From sequence record PP430346: 64,000 nucleotides of DNA; one strand, given 5' to 3'. The notes under the pieces were generated by a model, which was not told the DNA's origin, did no database searches, and saw only the letters and a program-made list of their open reading frames with translations. The DNA is from Escherichia phage vB_EcoM-LTH02. Below, piece after piece: positions 2,106 through 23,199 of the stretch. The position numbers were made by a program, and so were the translations under genes. Position 1 is the first letter of the stretch, and each line of letters starts with the position of its first letter.

Positions 2106-3452
2106 ATGAGTTCGAATATCTTCAGACTTGCTGATAGATTATTCAACCAACCTTTACTAGCCACTGAATCATTAGCTCACTCAGCAGCAACTTATGTGAA
2201 TAACAGATTGCTGGGTGATGTCCAAGCAGCAGTAAACTTTGATAAACCCAAAGGTGAAGCAAGAAGTCTTTTAAAAGTAAAAGATGACATTGCTATTATC
2301 CCTATTATGGGTGGTTTAACTCATCGTATGACATTCATTGATGCAATGTGTACAGGTGGTCTAAGCTCTTATGAAGGTTTACGTAGAGGCTTTGACGAAG
2401 CTTTAGCAGATGAGTCAATCAAGACTATTGTTCTGCATATTGATTCTGGTGGTGGTGAAGCTTCAGGTTGCTTTGAATTAGCACGTCACATTATGGCTTC
2501 AAGAGGCCAAAAGAAAATTATTGCTTATGTAGATGAGTTCGCTTGTTCCGCTGCATATGCTCTTGCATCTTCTGCTGAAGAAATTATTGCATCACCAGAT
2601 GCAGATGTTGGTTCTATTGGTGTAATCATGGTTCATCAGGAATTAACTAAGGCATTTGAAAAGAATGGCGTAACAATTAACGTCATCAAAGCTGGTGAGT
2701 TTAAAGGTATGGGTTCACCATTCCAAGCACTTTCAGAAGAAAGCAAAGAAAGACTTCAAAAGAGAATTAATGATACCTACGCAACCTTTACAGGTTTTGT
2801 AGCCGAATCTCGTAATCTCTCTGAAGAAGCTGTAAAGAATACTGAGGCGAATGTTTATTCTGCTCAGGAAGCTCTTGAACTTGGTTTAATTAACTCAATC
2901 ATGTCTCAAGATGATTTCTTAAATTACTTACAAGGTTCTGAAGAGGCTCCTGTAAGTTTAAACGTTAACAATTCAGGTGAAGAAATGACTGAACAAGAAA
3001 AGCAAGAACTAGAAGCTTTGCGTCTTCAGGTTGCTCAAATGAAAGCTAAAGAACAGGAAGCTGCTTTGTCAGATTTGACTAATAAGATTTCTGCTTCTGC
3101 TGAAGCTTTTGGATTTGATGCAAAAGAAGCTGCAACGACTATTTTAGGTGCTGGTCTTGATAACCCTCTGAGTGTTCTGTTTATGAATGCTATGGAAGGT
3201 GCTAACCAGAAACTTAATGAAACTATCGCATCCCATGCTTCTGCAATGGAAGAAAAAGAATCAGAGATTACCAAGCTGAAAGAAACTGCTGGTGCTGTTC
3301 TTGAACATTCCAACGCTATGGAAGAAATGGGTAATGACGGCGAAGCTGATTTGGTTGAAGAAGAAAAAGAACCAGCTAAGAATGCTTCCGAAGACACCGC
3401 TGAACAACGCAAACTGGCTCTCCAGAATGCTCTAAAATCTCTTATCAAATAA
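2106..3452 (+). CDS. Prohead protease (S49/ClpP-fold) with C-terminal scaffold-like domain
   Basis: Segments GGGEASGCFELARH and AYVDEFACSAAYALAS resemble the Ser-protease core of SppA/ClpP-type phage prohead proteases; C-terminal ~150 aa is E/A/K-rich and coiled-coil-like; sits between portal and capsid. Confidence 0.6.
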   Translation: MSSNIFRLADRLFNQPLLATESLAHSAATYVNNRLLGDVQAAVNFDKPKGEARSLLKVKDDIAIIPIMGGLTHRMTFIDAMCTGGLSSYEGLRRGFDEALADESIKTIVLHIDSGGGEASGCFELARHIMASRGQKKIIAYVDEFACSAAYALASSAEEIIASPDADVGSIGVIMVHQELTKAFEKNGVTINVIKAGEFKGMGSPFQALSEESKERLQKRINDTYATFTGFVAESRNLSEEAVKNTEANVYSAQEALELGLINSIMSQDDFLNYLQGSEEAPVSLNVNNSGEEMTEQEKQELEALRLQVAQMKAKEQEAALSDLTNKISASAEAFGFDAKEAATTILGAGLDNPLSVLFMNAMEGANQKLNETIASHASAMEEKESEITKLKETAGAVLEHSNAMEEMGNDGEADLVEEEKEPAKNASEDTAEQRKLALQNALKSLIK

Positions 3453-3463
3453 GGAACACAATA

Positions 3464-3841
3464 ATGGCATATCAAGGTTTTACTAAGTTAGGTAAAAGAG
3501 AACCTCTGAATGATATCATTCTTTGGGAACAGGTTACCCCAACAGGCCACTCTCGTAAAGAGTACACCCCAGTTGCTTCAACAGAATACCGTGTAGGTGA
3601 AGTTCTGAAAGCAGACGGTACTAAAGTTACAGCAGGACAAGAAGCTCAGGCTGATTCAGTATGTATCGTTAATTTCTACGCAGACCTGCAACTGTCTTAC
3701 CACGGTCAGTTGAAAGTTGTTGGTATCCACCGTGATGCAGAACTAAAAGACCTGCTAATTCTTGAATCAAGCGTTGATGCTGATGAAGTCAAGAAAGCTC
3801 TGGCTGCTAAAGGCATTGATTTCGTACCAACTGGCCTGTAA
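3464..3841 (+). CDS. Putative head decoration / minor head protein
   Basis: 125-aa ORF between protease/scaffold and major capsid gene, the position occupied by decoration proteins in lambda-like head modules. Confidence 0.35.
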   Translation: MAYQGFTKLGKREPLNDIILWEQVTPTGHSRKEYTPVASTEYRVGEVLKADGTKVTAGQEAQADSVCIVNFYADLQLSYHGQLKVVGIHRDAELKDLLILESSVDADEVKKALAAKGIDFVPTGL

Positions 3842-3874
3842 TAACAATAATAAGACATTCTGGAGAATTTTACA

Positions 3875-4981
3875 ATGTTGACTAATTCTGAAAAAAGCAG
3901 ATTTTTCCTTGCTGACCTGACTGGTGAAGTCCAGTCTATCCCAAATACTTATGGGTATATTTCCAACTTAGGTCTGTTCCGTTCAGCACCAATCACCCAA
4001 ACTACTTTCCTTATGGACTTGACTGATTGGGATGTTAGCTTGCTTGATGCGGTAGACCGTGATAGCCGTAAAGCAGAGACTAGCGCACCTGAGCGTGTTC
4101 GTCAAATCAGCTTCCCAATGATGTACTTCAAAGAAGTTGAAAGCATCACTCCTGATGAAATTCAGGGTGTACGTCAGCCAGGCACTGCAAACGAGCTTAC
4201 TACTGAAGCTGTAGTACGTGCTAAGAAGCTGATGAAGATTCGTACCAAGTTCGATATTACTCGTGAGTTCCTGTTTATGCAAGCTCTGAAGGGTAAAGTT
4301 GTCGATGCTCGTGGTACTCTGTACGCTGACCTGTACAAGCAGTTCGATGTTGAGAAGAAGACTGTTTACTTCGACCTTGACAACCCTAATGCGGATATCG
4401 ACGCTTCTATTGAAGAACTGCGTATGCACATGGAAGATGAAGCTAAGACTGGCACTGTAATCAACGGTGAAGAAATTCACGTAGTTGTTGACCGTGTGTT
4501 CTTCAGCAAGCTGACTAAACATCCTAAGATTCGTGATGCTTATCTTGCACAGCAGACTCCGCTGGCTTGGCAACAGATTACTGGTTCTCTGAGAACTGGT
4601 GGTACTGACGGCGTTCAGGCTCATATGAACACCTTCTACTACGGTGGTGTTAAGTTTGTCCAGTACAACGGTAAGTTCAAGGACAAGCGTGGTAAGGTTC
4701 ACACTCTGGTGAGCATTGATAGCGTAGCAGATACTGTTGGTGTTGGTCATGCTTTCCCTAACGTTTCTATGCTGGGTGAAGCAAACAACATCTTCGAAGT
4801 GGCATATGGTCCATGTCCTAAGATGGGTTATGCAAATACACTTGGTCAGGAACTGTACGTATTCGAATACGAAAAAGACCGTGACGAAGGTATTGACTTT
4901 GAAGCTCACTCTTACATGCTGCCATACTGTACTCGTCCTCAGTTGCTGGTAGATGTTCGCGCTGACGCCAAAGGTGGCTGA
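3875..4981 (+). CDS. Major capsid protein
   Basis: 368-aa ORF after protease/scaffold and decoration genes; good spacing to upstream AGGAGA-like RBS; size and position typical of HK97-fold capsid proteins. Confidence 0.65.
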   Translation: MLTNSEKSRFFLADLTGEVQSIPNTYGYISNLGLFRSAPITQTTFLMDLTDWDVSLLDAVDRDSRKAETSAPERVRQISFPMMYFKEVESITPDEIQGVRQPGTANELTTEAVVRAKKLMKIRTKFDITREFLFMQALKGKVVDARGTLYADLYKQFDVEKKTVYFDLDNPNADIDASIEELRMHMEDEAKTGTVINGEEIHVVVDRVFFSKLTKHPKIRDAYLAQQTPLAWQQITGSLRTGGTDGVQAHMNTFYYGGVKFVQYNGKFKDKRGKVHTLVSIDSVADTVGVGHAFPNVSMLGEANNIFEVAYGPCPKMGYANTLGQELYVFEYEKDRDEGIDFEAHSYMLPYCTRPQLLVDVRADAKGG

Positions 4982-5001
4982 TAAACTTAGGAGGGTTATG
5001 A

Positions 5002-5451
5002 ATGTGTTATACAGGCGACCCAGCCAATAACCCTCTTGATAGAGTAAGAATCCTCTGCACAGACACCAATAATGACGAAATTCTTATTGAGCAGTCTGTG
5101 CTAGAGTGGTTCTATCTAGAATCTGGAAAGGATGAAAAGAAAGCAGCCATCAAAGCTCTTAAATATTTACTCTTTCAAGTAGCCAAGATGGGAGATGAGA
5201 AGGTTGGTGGTGTTTATTTACGTAACTCTTCCAGATTCAAATCTCTGAAAGCTGTTTATGATGACCTTGTTAAAAGCTCTGTTTCAGGACTACCCTATGC
5301 AGGTGGTATTAATCAGTGTGATATTGACATGCGTCGTCAGAATCCTTGCTCTGTCAAGAAATACACAGAATATGGTGATGCTGCCAGATACGAAGGCAGA
5401 GATTACTGCAACCGTGTTAATGGCGTATTTATTATCGAGCGAGATGAATAA
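5002..5451 (+). CDS. Head completion / head-tail adaptor (putative)
   Basis: First ORF after the capsid gene, RBS AGGAGGG upstream; positional assignment only. Confidence 0.35.
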   Translation: MCYTGDPANNPLDRVRILCTDTNNDEILIEQSVLEWFYLESGKDEKKAAIKALKYLLFQVAKMGDEKVGGVYLRNSSRFKSLKAVYDDLVKSSVSGLPYAGGINQCDIDMRRQNPCSVKKYTEYGDAARYEGRDYCNRVNGVFIIERDE

Positions 5452-5933
5452 TGGTTAAAAGGGTTATTCACCCCGCTAGAGCAAAATTAGTCGGGGCTAT
5501 GAAGAACTTGCAAACGGCTAATGCTCAAGTTGGGTATTTTCAAGAACAAGGTCAACATAGCTCTGGTTTTTCTTATCCTGCTTTAATGTATTTACAAGAA
5601 GTTATTGGGGTTCCTTCAGCTTCTGGTAAAGTATATCGTAGGTTGTTTGAAATCACTATGATGCTAAACAAACAGGCCTTGTTAGAGCAGACTAAGAAGA
5701 ATCTATATAAGCAACTTAGCAGTCTCAACACAGACCCTTCAAATACCTTAGAAGCATTTGCAAAGAATGCTCAAAAGGCAATTAAAAGAGGTTTTGGTAA
5801 TTCTGCTATCCTCCCTCCTAACGCACCTTCCACAGTCAAGAAAAAAGGCTTTAATGCACCTCTTGTTGAGACAGGTGACTTAAGAGATAACCTTGCTTAT
5901 AAAATTTCTACTAAGAAGGGTATTAAAAAATGA
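5451..5933 (+). CDS. Head-tail joining protein (putative)
   Basis: Translationally coupled ORF in the neck region. Confidence 0.3.
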   Translation: MVKRVIHPARAKLVGAMKNLQTANAQVGYFQEQGQHSSGFSYPALMYLQEVIGVPSASGKVYRRLFEITMMLNKQALLEQTKKNLYKQLSSLNTDPSNTLEAFAKNAQKAIKRGFGNSAILPPNAPSTVKKKGFNAPLVETGDLRDNLAYKISTKKGIKK

Positions 5934-6331
5934 GACTCTTAAACAGACACAGCTTTGTAGTAAAGCGTAAAGTCTCTGAAGACGGTTATTATAATGATGA
6001 TGGTGATTGGGTAGCTTCACAAGATATTGTAGAGGTTAACTGTAAAGGTAATATCCAGCCATACATCAAAGGTTCTGTAAAGAATGGTACACAGATTGCT
6101 TTACCGGAAGGTGTTAGGCTTACCGATACAAGAATCCTGTATACCACATATAAACTTAGAACTTCAGATGATGTAGAGTGGAATGAGTCTGACATTGTTA
6201 TGATTGATGGTCATGAGTATGAAGTATTTATGACTATGGATTGGTCACAGCAATTAGCCCATACGTCCCATTATGAATATATCATTATTAGAAGGGATAA
6301 AATGAATGCAGTTAGAAACAGCAGAACTTGA
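5930..6331 (+). CDS. Neck / tail completion protein (putative)
   Basis: Overlapping start/stop (ATGA) with the previous ORF; positional. Confidence 0.3.
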   Translation: MRLLNRHSFVVKRKVSEDGYYNDDGDWVASQDIVEVNCKGNIQPYIKGSVKNGTQIALPEGVRLTDTRILYTTYKLRTSDDVEWNESDIVMIDGHEYEVFMTMDWSQQLAHTSHYEYIIIRRDKMNAVRNSRT

Positions 6332-6905
6332 AAAAGGTCTAGTTAGAACCTTAGTGGATGTTATTGGTCACAGACTAGCTCGTGATAAGAATAATAGACC
6401 AAATGTAATTAGAGCTTACCCTTCTGATAACTCAAATGACAAAGGTTTAAAACCTGACCAGCCATTTATTACCGTATATTGTCAAGATGCTGCAACACCT
6501 TATGGTTGGGTTCTTGATAAGTTTGTTGAGGATGATGTAGTTTGCTACAGAATTGCTTTTCAGATTCCAGTATTAATTACGGTAAATGGTAAAGGTGCTC
6601 ACAGCATTATGCTTGAGCTTAAACAACGATTAGAGATGAGTTCAGTCAGAGATTTAATTCTTGAAGAGACAGGAGCTACAGTTCTAGATACTGGAGCTAT
6701 CCCAAATGACTATACTTATCTTAATACAGATTTCGAAAATTCTGCACCTCTTGTTGTAACTCTTGTAAAAAATTCAGTCCTGAAAGATGAACGTGGAAGT
6801 ATTATTGAACGTGTCATCGTTGATGGTGAATTAGTTTACGAAGAAGGACAAGAGCCACCAGAATATACTATCCATCTAGATGTAGACTCCAAAGGGGTAA
6901 AATAA
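6306..6905 (+). CDS. Tail completion / sheath terminator (putative)
   Basis: ORF immediately upstream of the putative sheath gene; positional. Confidence 0.3.
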   Translation: MQLETAELEKGLVRTLVDVIGHRLARDKNNRPNVIRAYPSDNSNDKGLKPDQPFITVYCQDAATPYGWVLDKFVEDDVVCYRIAFQIPVLITVNGKGAHSIMLELKQRLEMSSVRDLILEETGATVLDTGAIPNDYTYLNTDFENSAPLVVTLVKNSVLKDERGSIIERVIVDGELVYEEGQEPPEYTIHLDVDSKGVK

Positions 6906-8258
6906 ATGTGGAATCCAATTGTTAATGTAGATATTACATTGAACACCGCAGGAACTACAAGAGAAGGTTTTGGGCTACCACTATTTTTAGCTTCAACAGA
7001 TAACTTTGAAGAAAGAGTCCGTGGTTACACTTCCTTAACTGAAGTTGCTGAAGATTTCGATGAGAATACTGCTGCATATAAGGCTGCTAAACAACTTTGG
7101 AGTCAAACTCCTAAAGTAACTCAGCTTTATATTGGTAGACGTGCTATGCAGTACACTGTATCAATTCCTGATGCCGTTACCGAAAGTACAGACTACTCAA
7201 TTACTGTAGCTGCTGGCGGTGGAATTTCTCAACCATATCAGTATACAGCAATAGAGTCAGATACTGCTGAAAAAGTATTGCAACAGTTTAAGACACAGAT
7301 TGAAGCTGACCCAACAATCAAAGATAAGGTTTCTGTGAACGTAACTGGTAGTGGTGCTTCTGCCACAATGATTATTACCAAAGCTGGTGATAATGACTTT
7401 GTGAAAGTAACAACCACAGCACAGACTGTATATATTGCAAGCACAACTGCTGATACAGCATCAACTGCTCTGGCAGCTATTGAAGCTTATTCAACTGACT
7501 GGTATTTCATTGCAGCAGAAGATAGAACTCAACAGTTTGTCTTAGCAATGGCTTCTGAGATTCAGGCTCGTAAGAAAATCTTCTTCACTGCTAACTCTGA
7601 TGTAGCAGCACTGCAAGGCACAGAATTAAACAGTGCAAATGATGTTCCAGCACAGCTTGCTAAGAACATGTACACCCGTACAGTTTGCTTGTGGCATCAC
7701 ACAGCAGCAGAAGACTATCCAGAGATGGCATACATTGCTTATGGTGCTCCATATGATGCAGGGTCAATTGCTTGGGGTAATGCTCAGTTGACTGGTGTAG
7801 CTGCTTCTCTACAGCCAGCTAATAAGAGACCTCTGACAAGTATTCAGAAGTCTGCTTTAGATGCACGTCACTGTAACTTTATTGACCTTGATGGTGGTGT
7901 TCCAGTGGTTCGTAGAGGGATTACTTCTGGTGGGGAATGGATTGACATCATCCGTGGTGTTGACTGGTTAGAATCAGACCTGAAAACTTCTCTGAGAGAC
8001 TTGCTAATTAACCAGAAGGGTGGTAAGATTACTTATGATGATACTGGTATTACTCGTATTCGTCAAGTCATTGAAACCTCTCTACAAAGAGCAGTCAACA
8101 GAAACTTCCTGTCATCTTACACAGTTAATGTTCCTAAAGCCTCTCAAGTTGCTTTGGCAGACAAGAAAGCTCGTATCCTGAAAGATGTTACCTTCGCAGG
8201 TATCTTAGCAGGTGCTATCTTGGATGTTGACTTGAAAGGTACAGTGGCTTACGAATAA
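6906..8258 (+). CDS. Tail sheath protein
   Basis: 450-aa ORF followed by a ~150-aa ORF, a chaperone pair and the tape measure gene: the canonical contractile-tail order sheath-tube-chaperones-TMP. Confidence 0.5.
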   Translation: MWNPIVNVDITLNTAGTTREGFGLPLFLASTDNFEERVRGYTSLTEVAEDFDENTAAYKAAKQLWSQTPKVTQLYIGRRAMQYTVSIPDAVTESTDYSITVAAGGGISQPYQYTAIESDTAEKVLQQFKTQIEADPTIKDKVSVNVTGSGASATMIITKAGDNDFVKVTTTAQTVYIASTTADTASTALAAIEAYSTDWYFIAAEDRTQQFVLAMASEIQARKKIFFTANSDVAALQGTELNSANDVPAQLAKNMYTRTVCLWHHTAAEDYPEMAYIAYGAPYDAGSIAWGNAQLTGVAASLQPANKRPLTSIQKSALDARHCNFIDLDGGVPVVRRGITSGGEWIDIIRGVDWLESDLKTSLRDLLINQKGGKITYDDTGITRIRQVIETSLQRAVNRNFLSSYTVNVPKASQVALADKKARILKDVTFAGILAGAILDVDLKGTVAYE

Positions 8259-9434: not shown

Positions 9435-17450
<8,016 letters not shown>

Positions 17451-17452
17451 TA

Positions 17453-18640
17453 ATGGCAGTAGGTGAAATTCAAATTAGTGCCTTGCCTCAAGCAGCCTTA
17501 CCAATTGACCTTAGTGATATCTTCCATCTTAAGCAGGGTATTGAGGATAAGAGATGTACTCTTGAGCAATTACTTGCTCCACACTCAAGCCTAAAAAATA
17601 ACCCTCATGGTGTTACTAAAACACAAATTGGTTTAGATAATGTTATTAATGCTCTTCAGTTAGTCGCTGCAAATAACTTATCAGATATTGTTAATGTAGC
17701 TGAGGCAAGAGCAAATCTACAGATTATGTCTTCAGAAGAGGTTAATAACCTTGTCCAGCAACATATCAAGGACAAGAGTAACCCACACAATACAACTAAG
17801 GCACAGGTTGGTTTAAGTAATGTCCAGAACTGGACAACATCTAATCTGTATAACGAAGATGCAGATAAGTATGCTACAGCAAGAGCAGTAAATAACTTGT
17901 ACAAGGCTGTTCAGGCTTCTTATCCAGTAGGTACTATCCATCTTTCTATGAACTCTGCAAACCCCTCTACATACTTAATTTGTGGAGGTACTTGGGAGTT
18001 GGTTTCAAAAGGTAGGGCATTGGTTGGTTATGACTCTGATACAAGGCCAGCAGGTTCTGTATTTGGTGCTTCAACTGTCACTTTGTCAGTTAATAACATG
18101 CCTCAACACTCACATTCTGTGTCTCTTAGTGGTGGCGGTCACACTCATAATGCAACTGTTTCAATTTCAGCTTTTGATTATGGAACTAAGACTACCAACT
18201 CTTTTGACTATGGAACAAAGACCACTAACACAACTGGTAACCATAATCACGTTGGCAGTGGGTCAACAAGTGCTGCTGGTGCTCACAACCACAGATTGAC
18301 CTATGAAGCAGGTGGTGGTCTATCGGAAAGACCTGCAATGGTCTGGTCTACAAGGAATGACCAATCATGGTACTCAGCAGATGCTGTCTGTGAAGTCGCT
18401 GGTTCGCACACCCACTCTTTTAGCGTTACCACTAATACAACTGGTAACCATAATCATACGGTGGGTATTGGTGCTCATAGCCATACAGTTGGTATTGGTT
18501 CACACACACACAATGGTACTGTGGCAGTTTCTTCTTCTGAGCATACACATAGTGGAAACACTAATAGTGTTGGTGGTGGACAAGCTTTCAACATTGAACA
18601 GCCATCATTCGTACTGTATGTATGGCAGAGAACAGCTTAA
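17453..18640 (+). CDS. Tail fiber protein with His-x-His-rich C-terminal tip
   Basis: 395 aa; C-terminal third contains about nine H-x-H motifs (HSHS, HTHN, HNHV...) and a duplicated FDYGTKTTN unit; ends in WQRTA, homologous to the C-terminus of the next ORF. Confidence 0.6.
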   Translation: MAVGEIQISALPQAALPIDLSDIFHLKQGIEDKRCTLEQLLAPHSSLKNNPHGVTKTQIGLDNVINALQLVAANNLSDIVNVAEARANLQIMSSEEVNNLVQQHIKDKSNPHNTTKAQVGLSNVQNWTTSNLYNEDADKYATARAVNNLYKAVQASYPVGTIHLSMNSANPSTYLICGGTWELVSKGRALVGYDSDTRPAGSVFGASTVTLSVNNMPQHSHSVSLSGGGHTHNATVSISAFDYGTKTTNSFDYGTKTTNTTGNHNHVGSGSTSAAGAHNHRLTYEAGGGLSERPAMVWSTRNDQSWYSADAVCEVAGSHTHSFSVTTNTTGNHNHTVGIGAHSHTVGIGSHTHNGTVAVSSSEHTHSGNTNSVGGGQAFNIEQPSFVLYVWQRTA

Positions 18641-18650
18641 TTTCTTTACA

Positions 18651-18670
18651 GGGGCTTTATAGCCCCTTTT
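18651..18670 (+). terminator. Rho-independent terminator after first tail fiber gene
   Basis: GGGGCT-TTAT-AGCCCC hairpin followed by TTTT. Confidence 0.55.
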
Positions 18671-18686
18671 AAGAGGAAAATTTATA

Positions 18687-21071
18687 ATGGCAGATTACAA
18701 ATTGAGTGAATTAAACTCAATCGACACAATCCGTTCAGATGACCTTCTTCATGTCAGAGTTAAAAAGAGACCTGAAATGCTGGGTGATGAAGACCGTCGA
18801 ATGACCTATCAAGATTTCTTAGCATCTTTTAAGCTTGAGAGATTTGTTCAGATTATTGGTAGTACCATGACGGGTGATTTAGGTATTGTTAAGTTACTTT
18901 ATGGTGGTAAGACAGTATTTGACCCTACAGGCTCTTCTGAGATTAATATTGGGGATGTTTTAAAGACTTTTAAAATTAACGCAAATGGTCTTAAGCTAAC
19001 TATTGCAGATGCTTCAAGGTCGGCAACTGTTTATCATACCCTGAATAAACCAAGTCCTAATGAGCTTGGGATGAGAACTAATGAAGAGAATGATGCAAGA
19101 TACTCAAGATTAGCTGCAAATAACATCTTTACCTTCCAACAGGTTATTCAAGCAAACGGTGAAGCCATTAGGTTAAAAAACTCTTCTGAGAACTCACCGC
19201 TGTATATTAGAGGTCAGGATAGCACTGGTGCTAATAGGTGGTATGTAGGTAATGGTTCAGGGAATGATGATGTTATTATCCACAACTACAAGACAGGTTG
19301 TGAAGTTAATCTGTCTAGTGTTGCTGCTATTAGCAAAACACTAAGAATCACTGGTCAAGTTCAACCATCTGACTTCTCTAACTTAGATGCTAGATATTTT
19401 ACTCAGACAGTAGCTAATCAGAGATTTGCACAGTTAGCTGCTAATAATAATTTTACTGGAACAAACACGTTTAGTAGAAACCTACTTATCATCAGTGACA
19501 GTGCTGCTTTAAGGTTGAAAAATACTGTAGCAAATGCTGCGCTATACGTTAAAGCCGAAGCTAATGATGGTTCTGGTAAGTGGTATGTAGGAAATGGTGA
19601 TAATACATCTGCTGTATTCCTCAGCAACTATGTATATGGTTCTTATCTTAGACTTGACAATGGACATGTCGCAGTCAACCAGAACTTCAGAATCACTGGT
19701 CAAGTTCAACCTTCAGATTGGGCTAACATTGACTCTAGATACATCCCAGCCGCAACTTTGAGTAACCTACCTAAACTTAATGTTGCTAACACATTTGTGA
19801 ATGTGCAAACTATTGTATCAAATAATGAAGGCGTAGTATTGAGGAACTTAACACAGGGACAGCCACAATATATCCGTGGTGTTGATACTGCGAATGTATC
19901 TAGGTGGTGGGTAGGTGTTGGTGGCACAAATTCTACTGATGTAGCATTAAACAACAGCTACTCTGGGACTCAAATTACTCTTATGTCCTCAGCGATTAAA
20001 GCTAATAAGAATCTAACCATTACTGGTCAAGTACAACCATCTGATTGGTCTAACTTAGATGCTAGATACTTTGTTAAGACTCAGTTATTAAATCAATCCT
20101 TGATGACTGTATCTGTAGATAATCTTGAAAACCCTTCAGCATTTAATCTTGGGTATTCAGGTTTTGTCAGAAACAACAGTGTGACTAGTGGTCTGAAAGA
20201 GTTGGCAATTCATGTTGCTCACTCTAATAAGTCTGCTGCACACGCAAGGGGTATCTCTTTTGTATACGGTTCAAACGGTTTGGCAACATTCACCTATGCC
20301 TATGACAAAAATGGTGACTATGCCGGAGAGGCACAGCTTTACACAACTGATTTTAAACCAACCCCTTCAGATATCGGTGCATACACTAAAGCTGAGACTG
20401 ACCAGAAGATTGCACAGGCAGTAAGTGACTCTACAGACCTTAATAAAATCTACCCAGTTGGTATTGTAACGTGGTTTAACAGTAATGTTAACCCTAACAC
20501 AGCGTTGCCTGGGTTAACTTGGACGTACCTGAACAATGGTGTTGGTAGAACTATCAGAATCGCAGCAGCAAACGGTTCAGATGTTGCTACAACTGGTGGT
20601 TCAGACTCTGTAACTTTAGCTGTTGGTAACTTACCATCACACACTCACAGTTTCTCTGCTACCACTTCATCTTTTGATTATGGTACGAAGGGCACTAATA
20701 GTACTGGTGGTCATACTCACTCTGTAAGTGGTACAACAAGTGCTGCTGGTAACCACGCTCACCACTTAGGTCTGCTATTGGTTAATGGTGGTGATGCTTT
20801 GTACGGATATACAACAGTTGGTAACAGCCTCCCTAGAACGCTTGACTGGCTTGATAGAAGAGATAACAAGTTCCCTAACACTAACACAACTGGTAACCAT
20901 ACACACACATGGTCTGGTACTACAAGCGGTGCTGGCGACCATTCCCACTCTGTAGGTATTGGTGCTCACAGCCACACAGTTAGTGGTAACACTGGTAGTA
21001 CAGGTTCTGGTTCGGCATTTAGTGTTACTAACCAGTTCTACAAGTTAATGGCTTGGGTAAGAACTGCTTAA
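18687..21071 (+). CDS. Long tail fiber protein
   Basis: 794 aa; three tandem ~115-aa repeats each containing RWYVGNG...ITGQVQPSD(F/W)SNLDARYF; C-terminal 190 aa paralogous to the preceding fiber ([28 protein letters not shown], ends WVRTA). Confidence 0.65.
19150..20100 (+). repeat. Three tandem ~345-bp coding repeats inside the long tail fiber gene
   Basis: Near-identical cores ATCACTGGTCAAGTTCAACC(A/T)TC(T/A)GA at 19347, 19692 and 20040. Confidence 0.6.
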
Positions 21072-21150: not shown

Positions 21151-21348
21151 ATGCCTACAATCCTAGCAATTCTTCTAAAAAATCTAGGTAGCTTCTTCTG
21201 GAAACTCATTTTATCCCTTCTAAGTGAATACATGATTGAGAAAGTGTTCTTTAGGCTTGCAAGATACCTTGCGAGTAAAACAGACACACCTATTGATGAT
21301 GAGTTCGTAGATAACTTAGAAAAAGCTTTTAAGGGGGAGAATAAATGA
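21151..21348 (+). CDS. Small membrane protein (holin-like?)
   Basis: 65 aa with hydrophobic N-terminal segment ILAILLKNLGSFFWKLILSLL. Confidence 0.35.
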   Translation: MPTILAILLKNLGSFFWKLILSLLSEYMIEKVFFRLARYLASKTDTPIDDEFVDNLEKAFKGENK

Positions 21349-21716
21349 AGTGGCTAGAGGAAGCTTTTAAAAATAATATTGGTGCAATTGTAGTTGGTAT
21401 TTTTAGTGTTATTGGGATGTATACCACCATGCAAGTCTCGGATGGTAAGCAAGAAGTGTCTATCACAACAAAGTTACAGCAGTTAGATAATTATTCCAAA
21501 AGTAATTATTCAGCTATTCGTGATTTACAGTCTGATATGAGGCTGCTTCAGCTAGGGATGGAGAACCAGAAAGTCCAGTTAGAGAATGTTAAGGGTGAGA
21601 ACGCAAAACTTACTAAGACTCTTGATAAATTCTCTGATAGTGTGAACAATCTGGCTCAATCAGTATCAGCCCTCCAAGCTATTACTGAAAAGAACACAAA
21701 GAATACTGAAAAGTAA
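21345..21716 (+). CDS. Membrane-anchored coiled-coil protein
   Basis: N-terminal TM helix (IGAIVVGIFSVIGMY) followed by a Q/L-rich helical domain; start overlaps the previous stop (ATGA). Confidence 0.35.
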   Translation: MKWLEEAFKNNIGAIVVGIFSVIGMYTTMQVSDGKQEVSITTKLQQLDNYSKSNYSAIRDLQSDMRLLQLGMENQKVQLENVKGENAKLTKTLDKFSDSVNNLAQSVSALQAITEKNTKNTEK

Positions 21717-21723
21717 AGTTTAA

Positions 21724-21749
21724 GGCTCCTTTTTACGGGAGCCTTTTTT
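21724..21749 (+). terminator. Rho-independent terminator closing the late/structural operon
   Basis: GGCTCC-TTTTTAC-GGGAGCC followed by TTTTTTGTTTT. Confidence 0.55.
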
Positions 21750-21752
21750 GTT

Positions 21753-22652
21753 TTATTTACCTACTGACAAAGGTGCTTCAATCTTTCCTGCATGTTGGTA
21801 ATTGTTAATACCACCGATAAAGTCACTTGCAGTGAGATGTTTTAAGTCACTTAAAGTGTTAAGCTGTAAACCAATCTCAAAAGTCGGTGCATGAAACTCT
21901 TCATTGTTCATCAGTTCATAAACCTGCTTCATATGATTCTGATAAATCTGAGTATCTCCAAAAACACCTATCAAGTACCGTGGAGTGTATCCAGTCATCT
22001 TACAAAGAACTTCCAGAATAAATCCATAAGATGCAATATTAAACGGAAGTCCTAAAAAGGTGTCTACAGAACGCTGATACCATTGTAAGTCAACTTCACC
22101 CTCGTTAGTGATATAAATCTGAAACAGAACATGACAAGGTGCTAGAGCCATTGAGTTTGCTGCAATATCTGCTGCATTCCAAGCATTAACAAGCATGTAA
22201 CGGTCTGTGATATCACCCTTCATCTTCGTTACTAAGGTCTCTAACTGGTCTACAACACAGCCGTTATGACCTTCAAAGTTTCTCCACTGAACCCCATAAA
22301 TCCTTCCACCTGCATCTTCTAACCAATCTTGCTCAGAAGAGTAATTAGAGCTTAACCAGCGTTTAAAATCATCTGACCAGATTGTCCAACGTTCACCATC
22401 ATTTTCACCCCAAGTACGGTAACGGAGTTCACCAAGCTTATTCTCACCGTTCAGGAACCATAAAGCTTCCCCAATAACTTGCCGTGTAAACACCTGTTTA
22501 GATGTTAAGAGAGGGAAACCAGTTCGCATATCAAAACGAAACTGAGGTGGAGCAAATGCAGAGATAACATCTCCAGTTCGTGTAGTACGCAGTTCACCAA
22601 CTGATAAAACATGGTTCAGGATATTTTTGTAACTTGAATCTGCTTGTGACAT
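21753..22652 (-). CDS. thyA: Thymidylate synthase
   Basis: Contains the catalytic PCH motif (LAPCHVLFQ) and DMRTGFPLLTSK folate/dUMP-binding region typical of ThyA. Confidence 0.85.
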   Translation of the reverse strand: MSQADSSYKNILNHVLSVGELRTTRTGDVISAFAPPQFRFDMRTGFPLLTSKQVFTRQVIGEALWFLNGENKLGELRYRTWGENDGERWTIWSDDFKRWLSSNYSSEQDWLEDAGGRIYGVQWRNFEGHNGCVVDQLETLVTKMKGDITDRYMLVNAWNAADIAANSMALAPCHVLFQIYITNEGEVDLQWYQRSVDTFLGLPFNIASYGFILEVLCKMTGYTPRYLIGVFGDTQIYQNHMKQVYELMNNEEFHAPTFEIGLQLNTLSDLKHLTASDFIGGINNYQHAGKIEAPLSVGK

Positions 22653-22653
22653 A

Positions 22654-23199
22654 TCAAAAGTGTCCTTTTACTTGTGGAACATAAATTTCAAAAGTTGCTT
22701 TACCATCCTCTGATGGTTTTGATTGTACCTTTGTAAATACACGGTTATCATACAGCTTCTCAAAGAAGTTTTCAAAAGGTAAATGCACAGTGGCCTCTTC
22801 AGTAACTTTATGGAAAACTGTATGGAACACCACACCAGCATACGGTAAAGCATTGACAAGGACACCTGCACCACCAATTACAAAGACATCTTCATCAATA
22901 GAGCTATCAAGATACTTCAAAAATGCTCCAAATGAATCTTTACTGGCTTTAGCATACATTACATCATCTTTGCCAAAGTCTATACCTAAGTATGGTACAG
23001 AATTTGTTAAGATGAGGTTTGCACGTTCTGGTAAAGGTTTACTACCCAGAGTCTTAAAAGTCTCATTACCCATCACTACTAAGTTATTTTTAGTGAGTCT
23101 CTTAAACTCTTGCATATCCTGTTTATGTCGAGGCCACGGCATACCAGTTGGAGTACCAAACTCACCATTTTCACCACTTGCAAAGATTAATTTAATCAT
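22654..23199 (-). CDS. frd: Dihydrofolate reductase
   Basis: N-terminus MIKLIFASGENGEFG...GMPW and internal VIGGAGVLVNALPYA match the DHFR fold signature; sits directly upstream of thyA as in T4-type td-frd pairs. Confidence 0.75.
   Translation of the reverse strand: MIKLIFASGENGEFGTPTGMPWPRHKQDMQEFKRLTKNNLVVMGNETFKTLGSKPLPERANLILTNSVPYLGIDFGKDDVMYAKASKDSFGAFLKYLDSSIDEDVFVIGGAGVLVNALPYAGVVFHTVFHKVTEEATVHLPFENFFEKLYDNRVFTKVQSKPSEDGKATFEIYVPQVKGHF

Follow-up and report, generated by a model that had tools for sequence, protein, structure and literature searches.

Short and long baseplate fibers of a Felixounavirus with T4 gp37-type tips and an exchangeable head cassette

Two adjacent genes on the + strand of Escherichia phage vB_EcoM-LTH02 (sequence record PP430346) encode a short tail fiber (STF; positions 17453..18640, 395 amino acids, aa) and a long tail fiber (LTF; positions 18687..21071, 794 aa). 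Positions refer to the window, that is, the whole stretch of 64,000 nucleotides (nt) analyzed here, and all fiber features described below lie on the + strand. Very probably, these genes encode the short and long baseplate fibers of a Felixounavirus, with tips of the type found in gp37 of phage T4 and with an exchangeable head cassette at the end of each tip. A previous reading made from the sequence only had already described the two open reading frames (ORFs) at these same coordinates, as paralogous tail fibers sharing a tip rich in His-x-His (HxH) motifs. Because its DNA is 96.8% identical to that of the Felixounavirus Escherichia phage EF202P1 and the 281 phage records matched by the region are nearly all Felix-O1-like, the window is assigned to a Felixounavirus genome.

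In the arrangement that we propose, each fiber would be a homotrimer in which the last 210-240 residues form a receptor-binding tip of the T4 gp37 type. From the collar, an axial strand with HxH boxes and FDYGTK repeats would descend to a head of 30-45 residues, after which an ascending strand would return through further HxH boxes and end in a tail that is specific to the lineage and packs against the collar. The head would sit at the distal end of the needle and contact the receptor. Each HxH box, repeated in three chains, would offer six histidines to a single metal ion on the axis (in T4, iron), and the nine metal sites predicted in the STF and the six predicted in the LTF would staple the six-stranded needle together. 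Finally, the boxes that encode the needle, whose DNA is conserved across many phages, would serve as crossover points through which the head and a variable length of the adjoining needle are exchanged as a cassette. The sequences directly show the homology, the motif statistics, the boundaries of the cassettes, and the exchanges that took place in relatives; we infer the trimeric state, the topology of the hairpin, the axial position of the histidines, the binding of metal, and the identity of the residues that touch the receptor. Since the fiber tip decides which bacteria can be attacked, the distinction between scaffold and head matters for the prediction of host range and for the engineering of therapeutic phages.

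Homologous tips and the histidine needle

The homology between the C-terminal regions of both fibers is clear. BLASTP aligns aa 136-395 of the STF with aa 562-794 of the LTF at 35% identity (E=3e-27). The shared region is longer than initially proposed, though, as it spans ~230-260 aa and not ~190 aa. All of the motifs that had been quoted for it are found in both proteins: FDYGTKTTN is present twice in the STF and, as FDYGTKGTN, once in the LTF; TNTTGNHNH is present twice in the STF and, as TNTTGNHTH, once in the LTF; and the C-terminal residues are WQRTA in the STF and WVRTA in the LTF. The internal duplication reported for the first fiber is genuine as well. Its two FDYGTKTTN copies (aa 241-249 and 251-259) are separated by a single serine in a tandem at aa 241-259 (18173..18229), and they are identical at 23 of 27 nt, with all of the differences being synonymous. 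Among the fibers of the subfamily that were examined, FDYGTK is found once in long fibers and two to four times in short fibers; T4 gp37 has a degenerate pair, and the T4-like phage SHBML-50-1 has three copies. The duplication is a variable-number repeat found throughout the family and not a peculiarity of this STF.

The tips are also packed with HxH motifs, as had been noted, with nine in the STF and six in the LTF. In 20,000 composition-preserving shuffles of each tip, the mean number of motifs was 1.41 for the STF and 0.74 for the LTF, with maxima of 6 and 5, and the observed counts were never reached. Nearly all histidines of the tips lie within HxH (18 of 19 in the STF and 12 of 13 in the LTF), and these are invariant or nearly so in alignments of 72-73 sequences that are otherwise 22-24% identical. 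It could be argued that this richness in HxH is only a compositional by-product of a β-fiber rich in Gly, Ser, Thr, and His, with no role in metal binding. Indeed, the needle is a low-complexity sequence (G, S, T, H), and the binding of metal by HxH is a prediction both for the phage studied here and for Bas63, a phage of the same genus discussed below. Nevertheless, the shuffling speaks against a chance or low-complexity origin of the motifs, and the histidines stand as invariant columns in otherwise divergent alignments. Moreover, the same boxes of the T4 needle coordinate seven irons, and residues H929/H931 are essential (PMC6957217). An explanation by composition alone is thus hardly credible.

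The likeness to T4 long fibers, which had been proposed as a reminiscence, is in fact homology to the metal-binding needle of gp37. In phmmer searches, the STF (E=7e-26) and the LTF (E=5e-22) both match the T4 gp37 tip as solved by crystallography (PDB 2xgf), and the sequence homology extends over the collar and both needle strands. The Pfam domain Gp10_C covers aa 154-261 of the STF (1e-18) and aa 586-693 of the LTF, where its score of 25.7 bits is slightly below the 27-bit cut-off. The LTF also matches Phage_fiber and, three times, gp37_trimer (1e-69). As for whole-protein families, the STF belongs with PHROG 2097 'tail fiber' (2e-137) and is annotated as 'tail fiber protein GP37' in wV8/Felix O1, while the LTF aligns over its full length with PHROG 4277 (1-794 against 1-780 of 780; E=0). 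The likeness that had been suggested to T4 short fibers was not borne out: no similarity to gp12 was found, as no gp12 chain is present among the PDB sequence matches (E<=1) or the fold matches of either fiber. What is in common is only the collar fold, which gp12 shares with gp10 and with domain D10 of gp37 (PMC6957217).

In T4 gp37, the D10 collar is formed by residues 811-881 and 1010-1026 and the stem by residues 882-931 and 960-1009, with the tip subdomain (932-959) inserted between the two stem segments and with seven axial irons held by HxH histidines (PMC6957217, Islam et al. 2019). The T4 boxes, at 883, 915, and 929 before the insert and at 966, 980, 989, and 998 after it, align opposite those of the STF and the LTF. 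Counted as descending plus ascending boxes, there are 4+5 in the STF, 3+3 in the LTF, and 3+4 in T4. As in a T4-type tip, a collar of the gp10/gp12/gp37-D10 type stands directly before the needle in both fibers, and repeated HxH boxes flank a central insert. The HxH boxes, the FDYGTK repeat, and the VGIGAHxHTV box follow one another as they do in gp37, and the insertion point of the head is identical. The head of T4 itself is unrelated to both heads found here, and its C-terminal tail is different. Together, these correspondences suggest a hairpin topology, in which the chain descends the needle, forms a head of 30-45 aa, and returns. Because the chain would fold back according to the alignment with T4, the C-terminal WxRTA would adjoin the collar and not the distal end. 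Consequently, the shared C-terminal motifs, which had been regarded as the tip of the fiber, were mislocated; the alignment places them in the needle scaffold.

The lengths of the needle strands fit a fold-back as well. Across 210 homologs, the descending stem and the ascending stem plus tail vary together in length (r=0.99, slope 0.95; r=0.89 over 20 distinct length pairs), while the length of the head is uncorrelated with that of the stem (r=0.10). Where repeats have been gained on one strand (for instance, an FDYGTK unit), the other strand has gained repeats as well (for instance, a VGIGxHxHT unit), as seen in the STF studied here and in SHBML-50-1. A useful by-product of this comparison is that the length of the needle changes via paired gains of repeats on both strands. 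Monomer AlphaFold2 models were too poor in quality to show the hairpin; the best-predicted part of the STF model is the collar, with a predicted local distance difference test score of 86-92.

In the STF, the collar (aa 154-217; 17912..18103) corresponds to the first part of D10, as aligned with residues 811-881 of gp37. The descending strand (aa 218-280; 18104..18292) carries four HxH boxes (219, 230, 264, and 278) and both FDYGTKTTN copies, and it is 64% identical to its LTF equivalent and 65% identical to T4. The final HxH of this strand and the initial one of the ascending strand flank the core of the head cassette (aa 281-318; 18293..18406), which corresponds to the T4 tip subdomain 932-959 and is the predicted receptor-contact region. 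The ascending strand follows (aa 319-366; 18407..18550), with five HxH boxes (319, 333, 342, 351, and 364). Finally, the C-terminal tail (aa 367-395; 18551..18637), which ends in …EQPSFVLYVWQRTA, is specific to the short-fiber lineage and is 59-100% conserved among short fibers. It aligns with the D10 return segment of T4 (1010-1026) and, by this alignment, would return to the collar.

The LTF has the same plan at the end of a much longer protein. Its shaft contains repeated β-helix domains, seen as three stretches of Pfam gp37_trimer (19104..20096), and is followed by the collar (aa 586-650; 20442..20636), which lies within the Gp10_C match and is 67-100% conserved among long fibers. The descending strand (aa 651-692; 20637..20762) has HxH boxes at 652, 676, and 690, the latter within HAHH, as well as the single FDYGTKGTN, and it is 73% identical to T4 gp37. 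Next, the core of the head cassette (aa 693-737; 20763..20897) is the predicted receptor-contact region. The ascending strand (aa 738-765; 20898..20981), with boxes at 738, 752, and 761, is 80% identical to T4. The C-terminal tail (aa 766-794; 20982..21068) is specific to the long-fiber lineage, as it differs from the tails of both the STF and T4, and it is 76-100% conserved among long fibers.

Variable heads and the exchange of cassettes

When the two fibers are compared with each other, identity is 30% in the collar, 64% in the descending stem, 9% in the head, 67% in the ascending stem, and 48% in the C-terminal tail. Within each fiber type, the mean identity among nine Ounavirinae is 84-86% for the collar and 21-27% for the head. 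In agreement with this, DNA identity to relatives collapses over 18223-18438 in the STF, a region that is replaced in C600M2 and pinkbiff, and over ~20757-20930 in the LTF, which is replaced in most relatives. These gaps span the head and, in the STF, also the neighboring needle boxes. Because the head is variable and the needle is shared, what had been called shared tip modules would be the structural needle, and specificity should sit in the unshared head. That is, the small distal head should determine receptor specificity, a role predicted from the T4-type tip and fitted by the position and hypervariability of the head.

In the LTF, the head and the distal needle form a cassette (aa 659-765; 20661..20980) that is shared with the gp37 genes of T4-like phages. 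Blastn aligns this segment with gp37 of the Tequatroviruses SHBML-50-1, BYEP01, and sutha at 90.1-91.3% nt identity over 304-320 nt, and the head protein is 100% identical in SHBML-50-1 and BYEP01 and 95.6% identical in sutha. T4 itself matches the cassette at 80-81% and only in the two needle arms. The boundaries of the cassette are an SSFDYGTK box and a VGIGAH(S/T)HT box. Outside these limits, blastn finds no DNA similarity between the LTF and Tequatrovirus gp37, and the collar and the C-terminal tail are unrelated. In effect, the head and distal needle of the three Tequatrovirus proteins are identical or nearly so to those of the LTF cassette, whereas their collar, tail, shaft, and downstream gp38 are all T4-type, unlike the LTF. 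SHBML-50-1 gp37 also has one FDYGTK repeat and one VGIGAHTHT box more than the LTF. By these matches, the LTF carries a cassette that is also present in some T4-like phages.

This sharing bears on the origin of the two genes, which had been described as paralogous. The simplest version of such an origin would be duplication within the Felixounavirus lineage, in which case the similarity of the tips would be merely inherited. The genes are adjacent and on the same strand, their tips are homologous, a weak match is found between their N-terminal regions (E=0.046), and their N-terminal baseplate-binding domains are reported to be structurally similar (PMC12609058). Nevertheless, the identity of the LTF needle is higher with T4 gp37 (73-80%) than with the needle of its own STF (64-67%), and the collars are only 30% identical. 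In addition, T-even phages share the LTF cassette at 90-91% nt identity, which shows a recent lateral acquisition, and the tip module is widespread in the fibers of enterobacterial prophages. Thus, the tips are homologous, as proposed, while simple paralogy of the two fibers is improbable.

The sequence-only reading had also suggested that the shared tip modules on the two fibers provide a recombination substrate for host-range switching. The boxes that it flagged are exchange sites in relatives, but the substrate that the STF and the LTF offer each other in this genome is marginal. The longest tract that is identical between both genes is 23 nt (CACTAACACAACTGGTAACCATA), and it is out of register, pairing the descending strand of the STF with the ascending strand of the LTF, so that recombination through it would join non-equivalent strands and remove the head. 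In register, the two genes match over 26 nt (92%), 33 nt (88%), and 81 nt (78%), and the longest exact match between both fibers is 12-24 nt across eleven genomes. Moreover, a search of 50,697 phage records located neither of the two heads on the opposite fiber scaffold: the STF head is found in STF position only, in 31 Felixounavirus records, and the LTF head is found only in LTF position or in T4-like gp37.

Taken alone, these searches for the heads of the window and nine genomes would suggest that no exchange between short and long fibers exists, but a wider set of 230 homologs, gathered in two protein searches, shows otherwise. In this set, an STF scaffold (P0019) and an LTF scaffold (P0124, from phage REP7) both carry a T4-type head. 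The STF of Salmonella phage SPJ41 (P0034) bears the long-fiber cassette of phage ph2-2, with 96.2% nt identity over 186 nt, while the LTF cassette of SPJ41 matches the STF head of ph2-2 with 86.7% nt identity over 135 nt. Thus, between the loci of SPJ41 (3224-6793) and ph2-2 (3596-7252), each in its own numbering, the heads are reciprocally placed and the flanks are scaffold-specific. The crossovers are located in the FDYGTK/TTGAHTH box and in a second conserved box, which are the same two boxes that bound the LTF cassette described above. A further LTF scaffold with an STF-type head, P0125, is a partial sequence; because its cassette has different limits, it represents an independent event.

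From these observations, the two tips of one genome could be thought to recombine with each other, moving receptor specificity between the short and the long fiber. The reciprocal heads of SPJ41, with their crossovers in the shared boxes, and the independent P0125 are what would be expected in such a case. The SPJ41 pattern is equally explicable, however, by two exchanges with co-infecting phages, and given the short and out-of-register tracts and the distribution of the heads among phage records, recombination between the two genes of one genome seems unlikely. For the phage studied here, the evidence points instead to exchange with other phages. In general, then, the conserved boxes serve as exchange points, with a recombination role that is real but operates mainly between phages. 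As judged from the sequences compared, the documented exchanges are between phages, including phages of different families, and swaps between short-fiber and long-fiber heads are found in Salmonella relatives only. For T-even adhesins, exchange at conserved motifs is described as established in the work of Tetart (1996, 1998), as cited in PMC3157838.

The long-fiber cassette of a Salmonella Felixounavirus has ~79-81% protein identity to the side tail fibers of the lambdoid Salmonella prophages Gifsy-1, Gifsy-2, and Fels-1 (~81%) and to a tail protein of ~30-kb Salmonella phages (SW3/SW5/SI7). These matches bring temperate phages into the network of cassettes.

Comparison with published fibers

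The tip architecture described above has already been published for this genus. A cryo-electron microscopy study of Bas63 (Escherichia phage JohannRWettstein; November 2025) described, with the help of AlphaFold, a short fiber (gp26) and a long fiber (gp27), in both of which collar, HxH needle, and head make up the tip, and explicitly compared both tips with T4 gp37 (PMC12609058). As the same architecture has been published for Bas63, the finding as stated is already known. Another structure with two fibers (gp52/gp53) is that of Sf14 (PMC11821841), which is in the same subfamily as the phage studied here. The orthology of the STF with gp26 and of the LTF with gp27 was set by synteny, by lengths, and by the description in the paper. 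Some differences are observed between both phages. The STF has nine boxes here and seven in Bas63, and seven-box variants are also found in C600M2 and pinkbiff. The Bas63 LTF was described with six boxes and one extra histidine (PMC12609058); this extra histidine is found as HxHH (690, 692, and 693) here and as HHxH (692, 693, and 695) in Bas63. The head cassettes are also different. The cross-family sharing of cassettes and the swap in SPJ41 may be unreported, although they are instances of a known principle. By-products of the present comparison are the exact boundaries of the cassettes in this genome and evidence that one head can function on widely differing fibers, be they T4-like or Felix-O1-like, short or long.

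More broadly, the fibers follow the plan of the T4/lambda family of receptor-binding proteins, in which a conserved distal tip of ~215 aa sandwiches a receptor-specific insert of 30-70 aa (PMC9659904). This family includes lambda Stf, PhiNP ORF6, and the side tail fibers of Gifsy and Fels phages, and the main text of its description does not mention Felixounaviruses. There are, nevertheless, important differences from T4. For instance, gp37 has seven HxH boxes, compared with the nine and six found here. It is also the distal quarter of a jointed fiber of four proteins, while the tips described here are carried by single-protein fibers that attach directly to the baseplate. As for the T4 short fiber, neither fiber matched the sequence of any gp12 structure in PDB searches, and the authors of the Bas63 study also observed that their STF differs from that of T4 (PMC12609058).

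Some observations weigh against the assignment of both fibers to T4 gp37-type tips with exchangeable heads. T4 gp37 requires the chaperone gp38, which is encoded next door, and members of the T4/lambda family are described with an adjacent assembly protein of the gp38/Tfa type. In contrast, phmmer searches with gp38 of T4 and SHBML-50-1 gave no match among the 525 stop-to-stop segments of the 64-kb window, which covers all but ~24 kb of the genome; thus, folding may differ. The STF has nine boxes, two more than the seven reported for Bas63, and the metal occupancy of all nine is putative. Felixounaviruses are thought to use lipopolysaccharide (LPS) as their receptor, while T4-type gp37 tips bind OmpC and/or LPS (PMC6957217). 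Finally, the arrangement seen in SPJ41 comes from a single deposited assembly, and P0125, while independent, is partial.

Gene neighborhood and other features of the fiber region

Upstream of the fiber genes, baseplate genes encode proteins of 489, 285, and 100 aa. The order and lengths of these genes, followed by the two fibers, agree with those of gp23-gp27 of Bas63, where the 489-aa protein is wedge 2, the 285-aa protein is wedge 1, and the next one is the long-fiber platform (PMC12609058). By gene order, the 100-aa protein (17148..17450, + strand; PHROG 4141, 3e-61) is the counterpart of this platform, gp25, which has been described as an attachment point similar to T4 gp9 (PMC12609058). 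Ten loci that were compared show identical synteny, with the fiber genes placed after those for the baseplate wedge and the 100-aa platform.

The N-terminal part of the STF has a repeated motif, found as NPHGVTKTQIGLDNV (aa 49-63) and NPHNTTKAQVGLSNV (aa 110-124), in a region at 17590-17830 (aa ~47-126). In addition, aa ~38-163 match the corresponding part of many unrelated tail-fiber PHROGs; this segment probably represents the units that the Bas63 study called 'triple alpha-helix and turn'. In the shaft of the LTF, internal DNA repeats are located at 19341-19400, 19684-19748, and 20003-20080, matching the repeated gp37_trimer/β-helix domains. The shaft (~19100-20355) has low identity to relatives and is as divergent as the head, and the variability of its β-helix repeats was also remarked for the genus by the authors of the Bas63 study (PMC12609058).

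The 46-nt gap between the STF and LTF genes contains a stem-loop, read directly from the sequence as AGGGGCT-TTAT-AGCCCCT followed by TTTT (18649..18672, + strand), after which a ribosome binding site (AAGAGGAAA) precedes the LTF gene. The wV8 annotation has a rho-independent terminator here. The stem-loop is absent from the output of the consensus terminator scan, and consensus scans for promoters and terminators in the fiber region gave results not above shuffled expectation. The stem-loop could set the ratio of short to long fiber expression.

Downstream of the LTF gene, there are two small ORFs (21151-21716) of 65 and 123 aa (PHROG 402 and 4038), which relatives list as hypothetical, holin, or holin-like proteins. 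Next, and on the opposite strand (21753-23199), come the genes for thymidylate synthase and dihydrofolate reductase. The point where the structural genes of the + strand meet these two genes of the - strand is marked by a strong hairpin terminator (AAGGCTCC…GGAGCCTT and a T-run; 21722-21745), and the sign of the GC skew flips near this hairpin and again near 32 kb. ARAGORN found no tRNA genes in the window. An HxH motif is also present elsewhere in the same tail. The central spike protein (13777-14400, 207 aa) has the C-terminus …NEHTHHYYW, with HxH at H188/H190, positions that coincide with a di-histidine motif reported for the puncturing apparatus of Bas63 and that would represent a further putative iron site.

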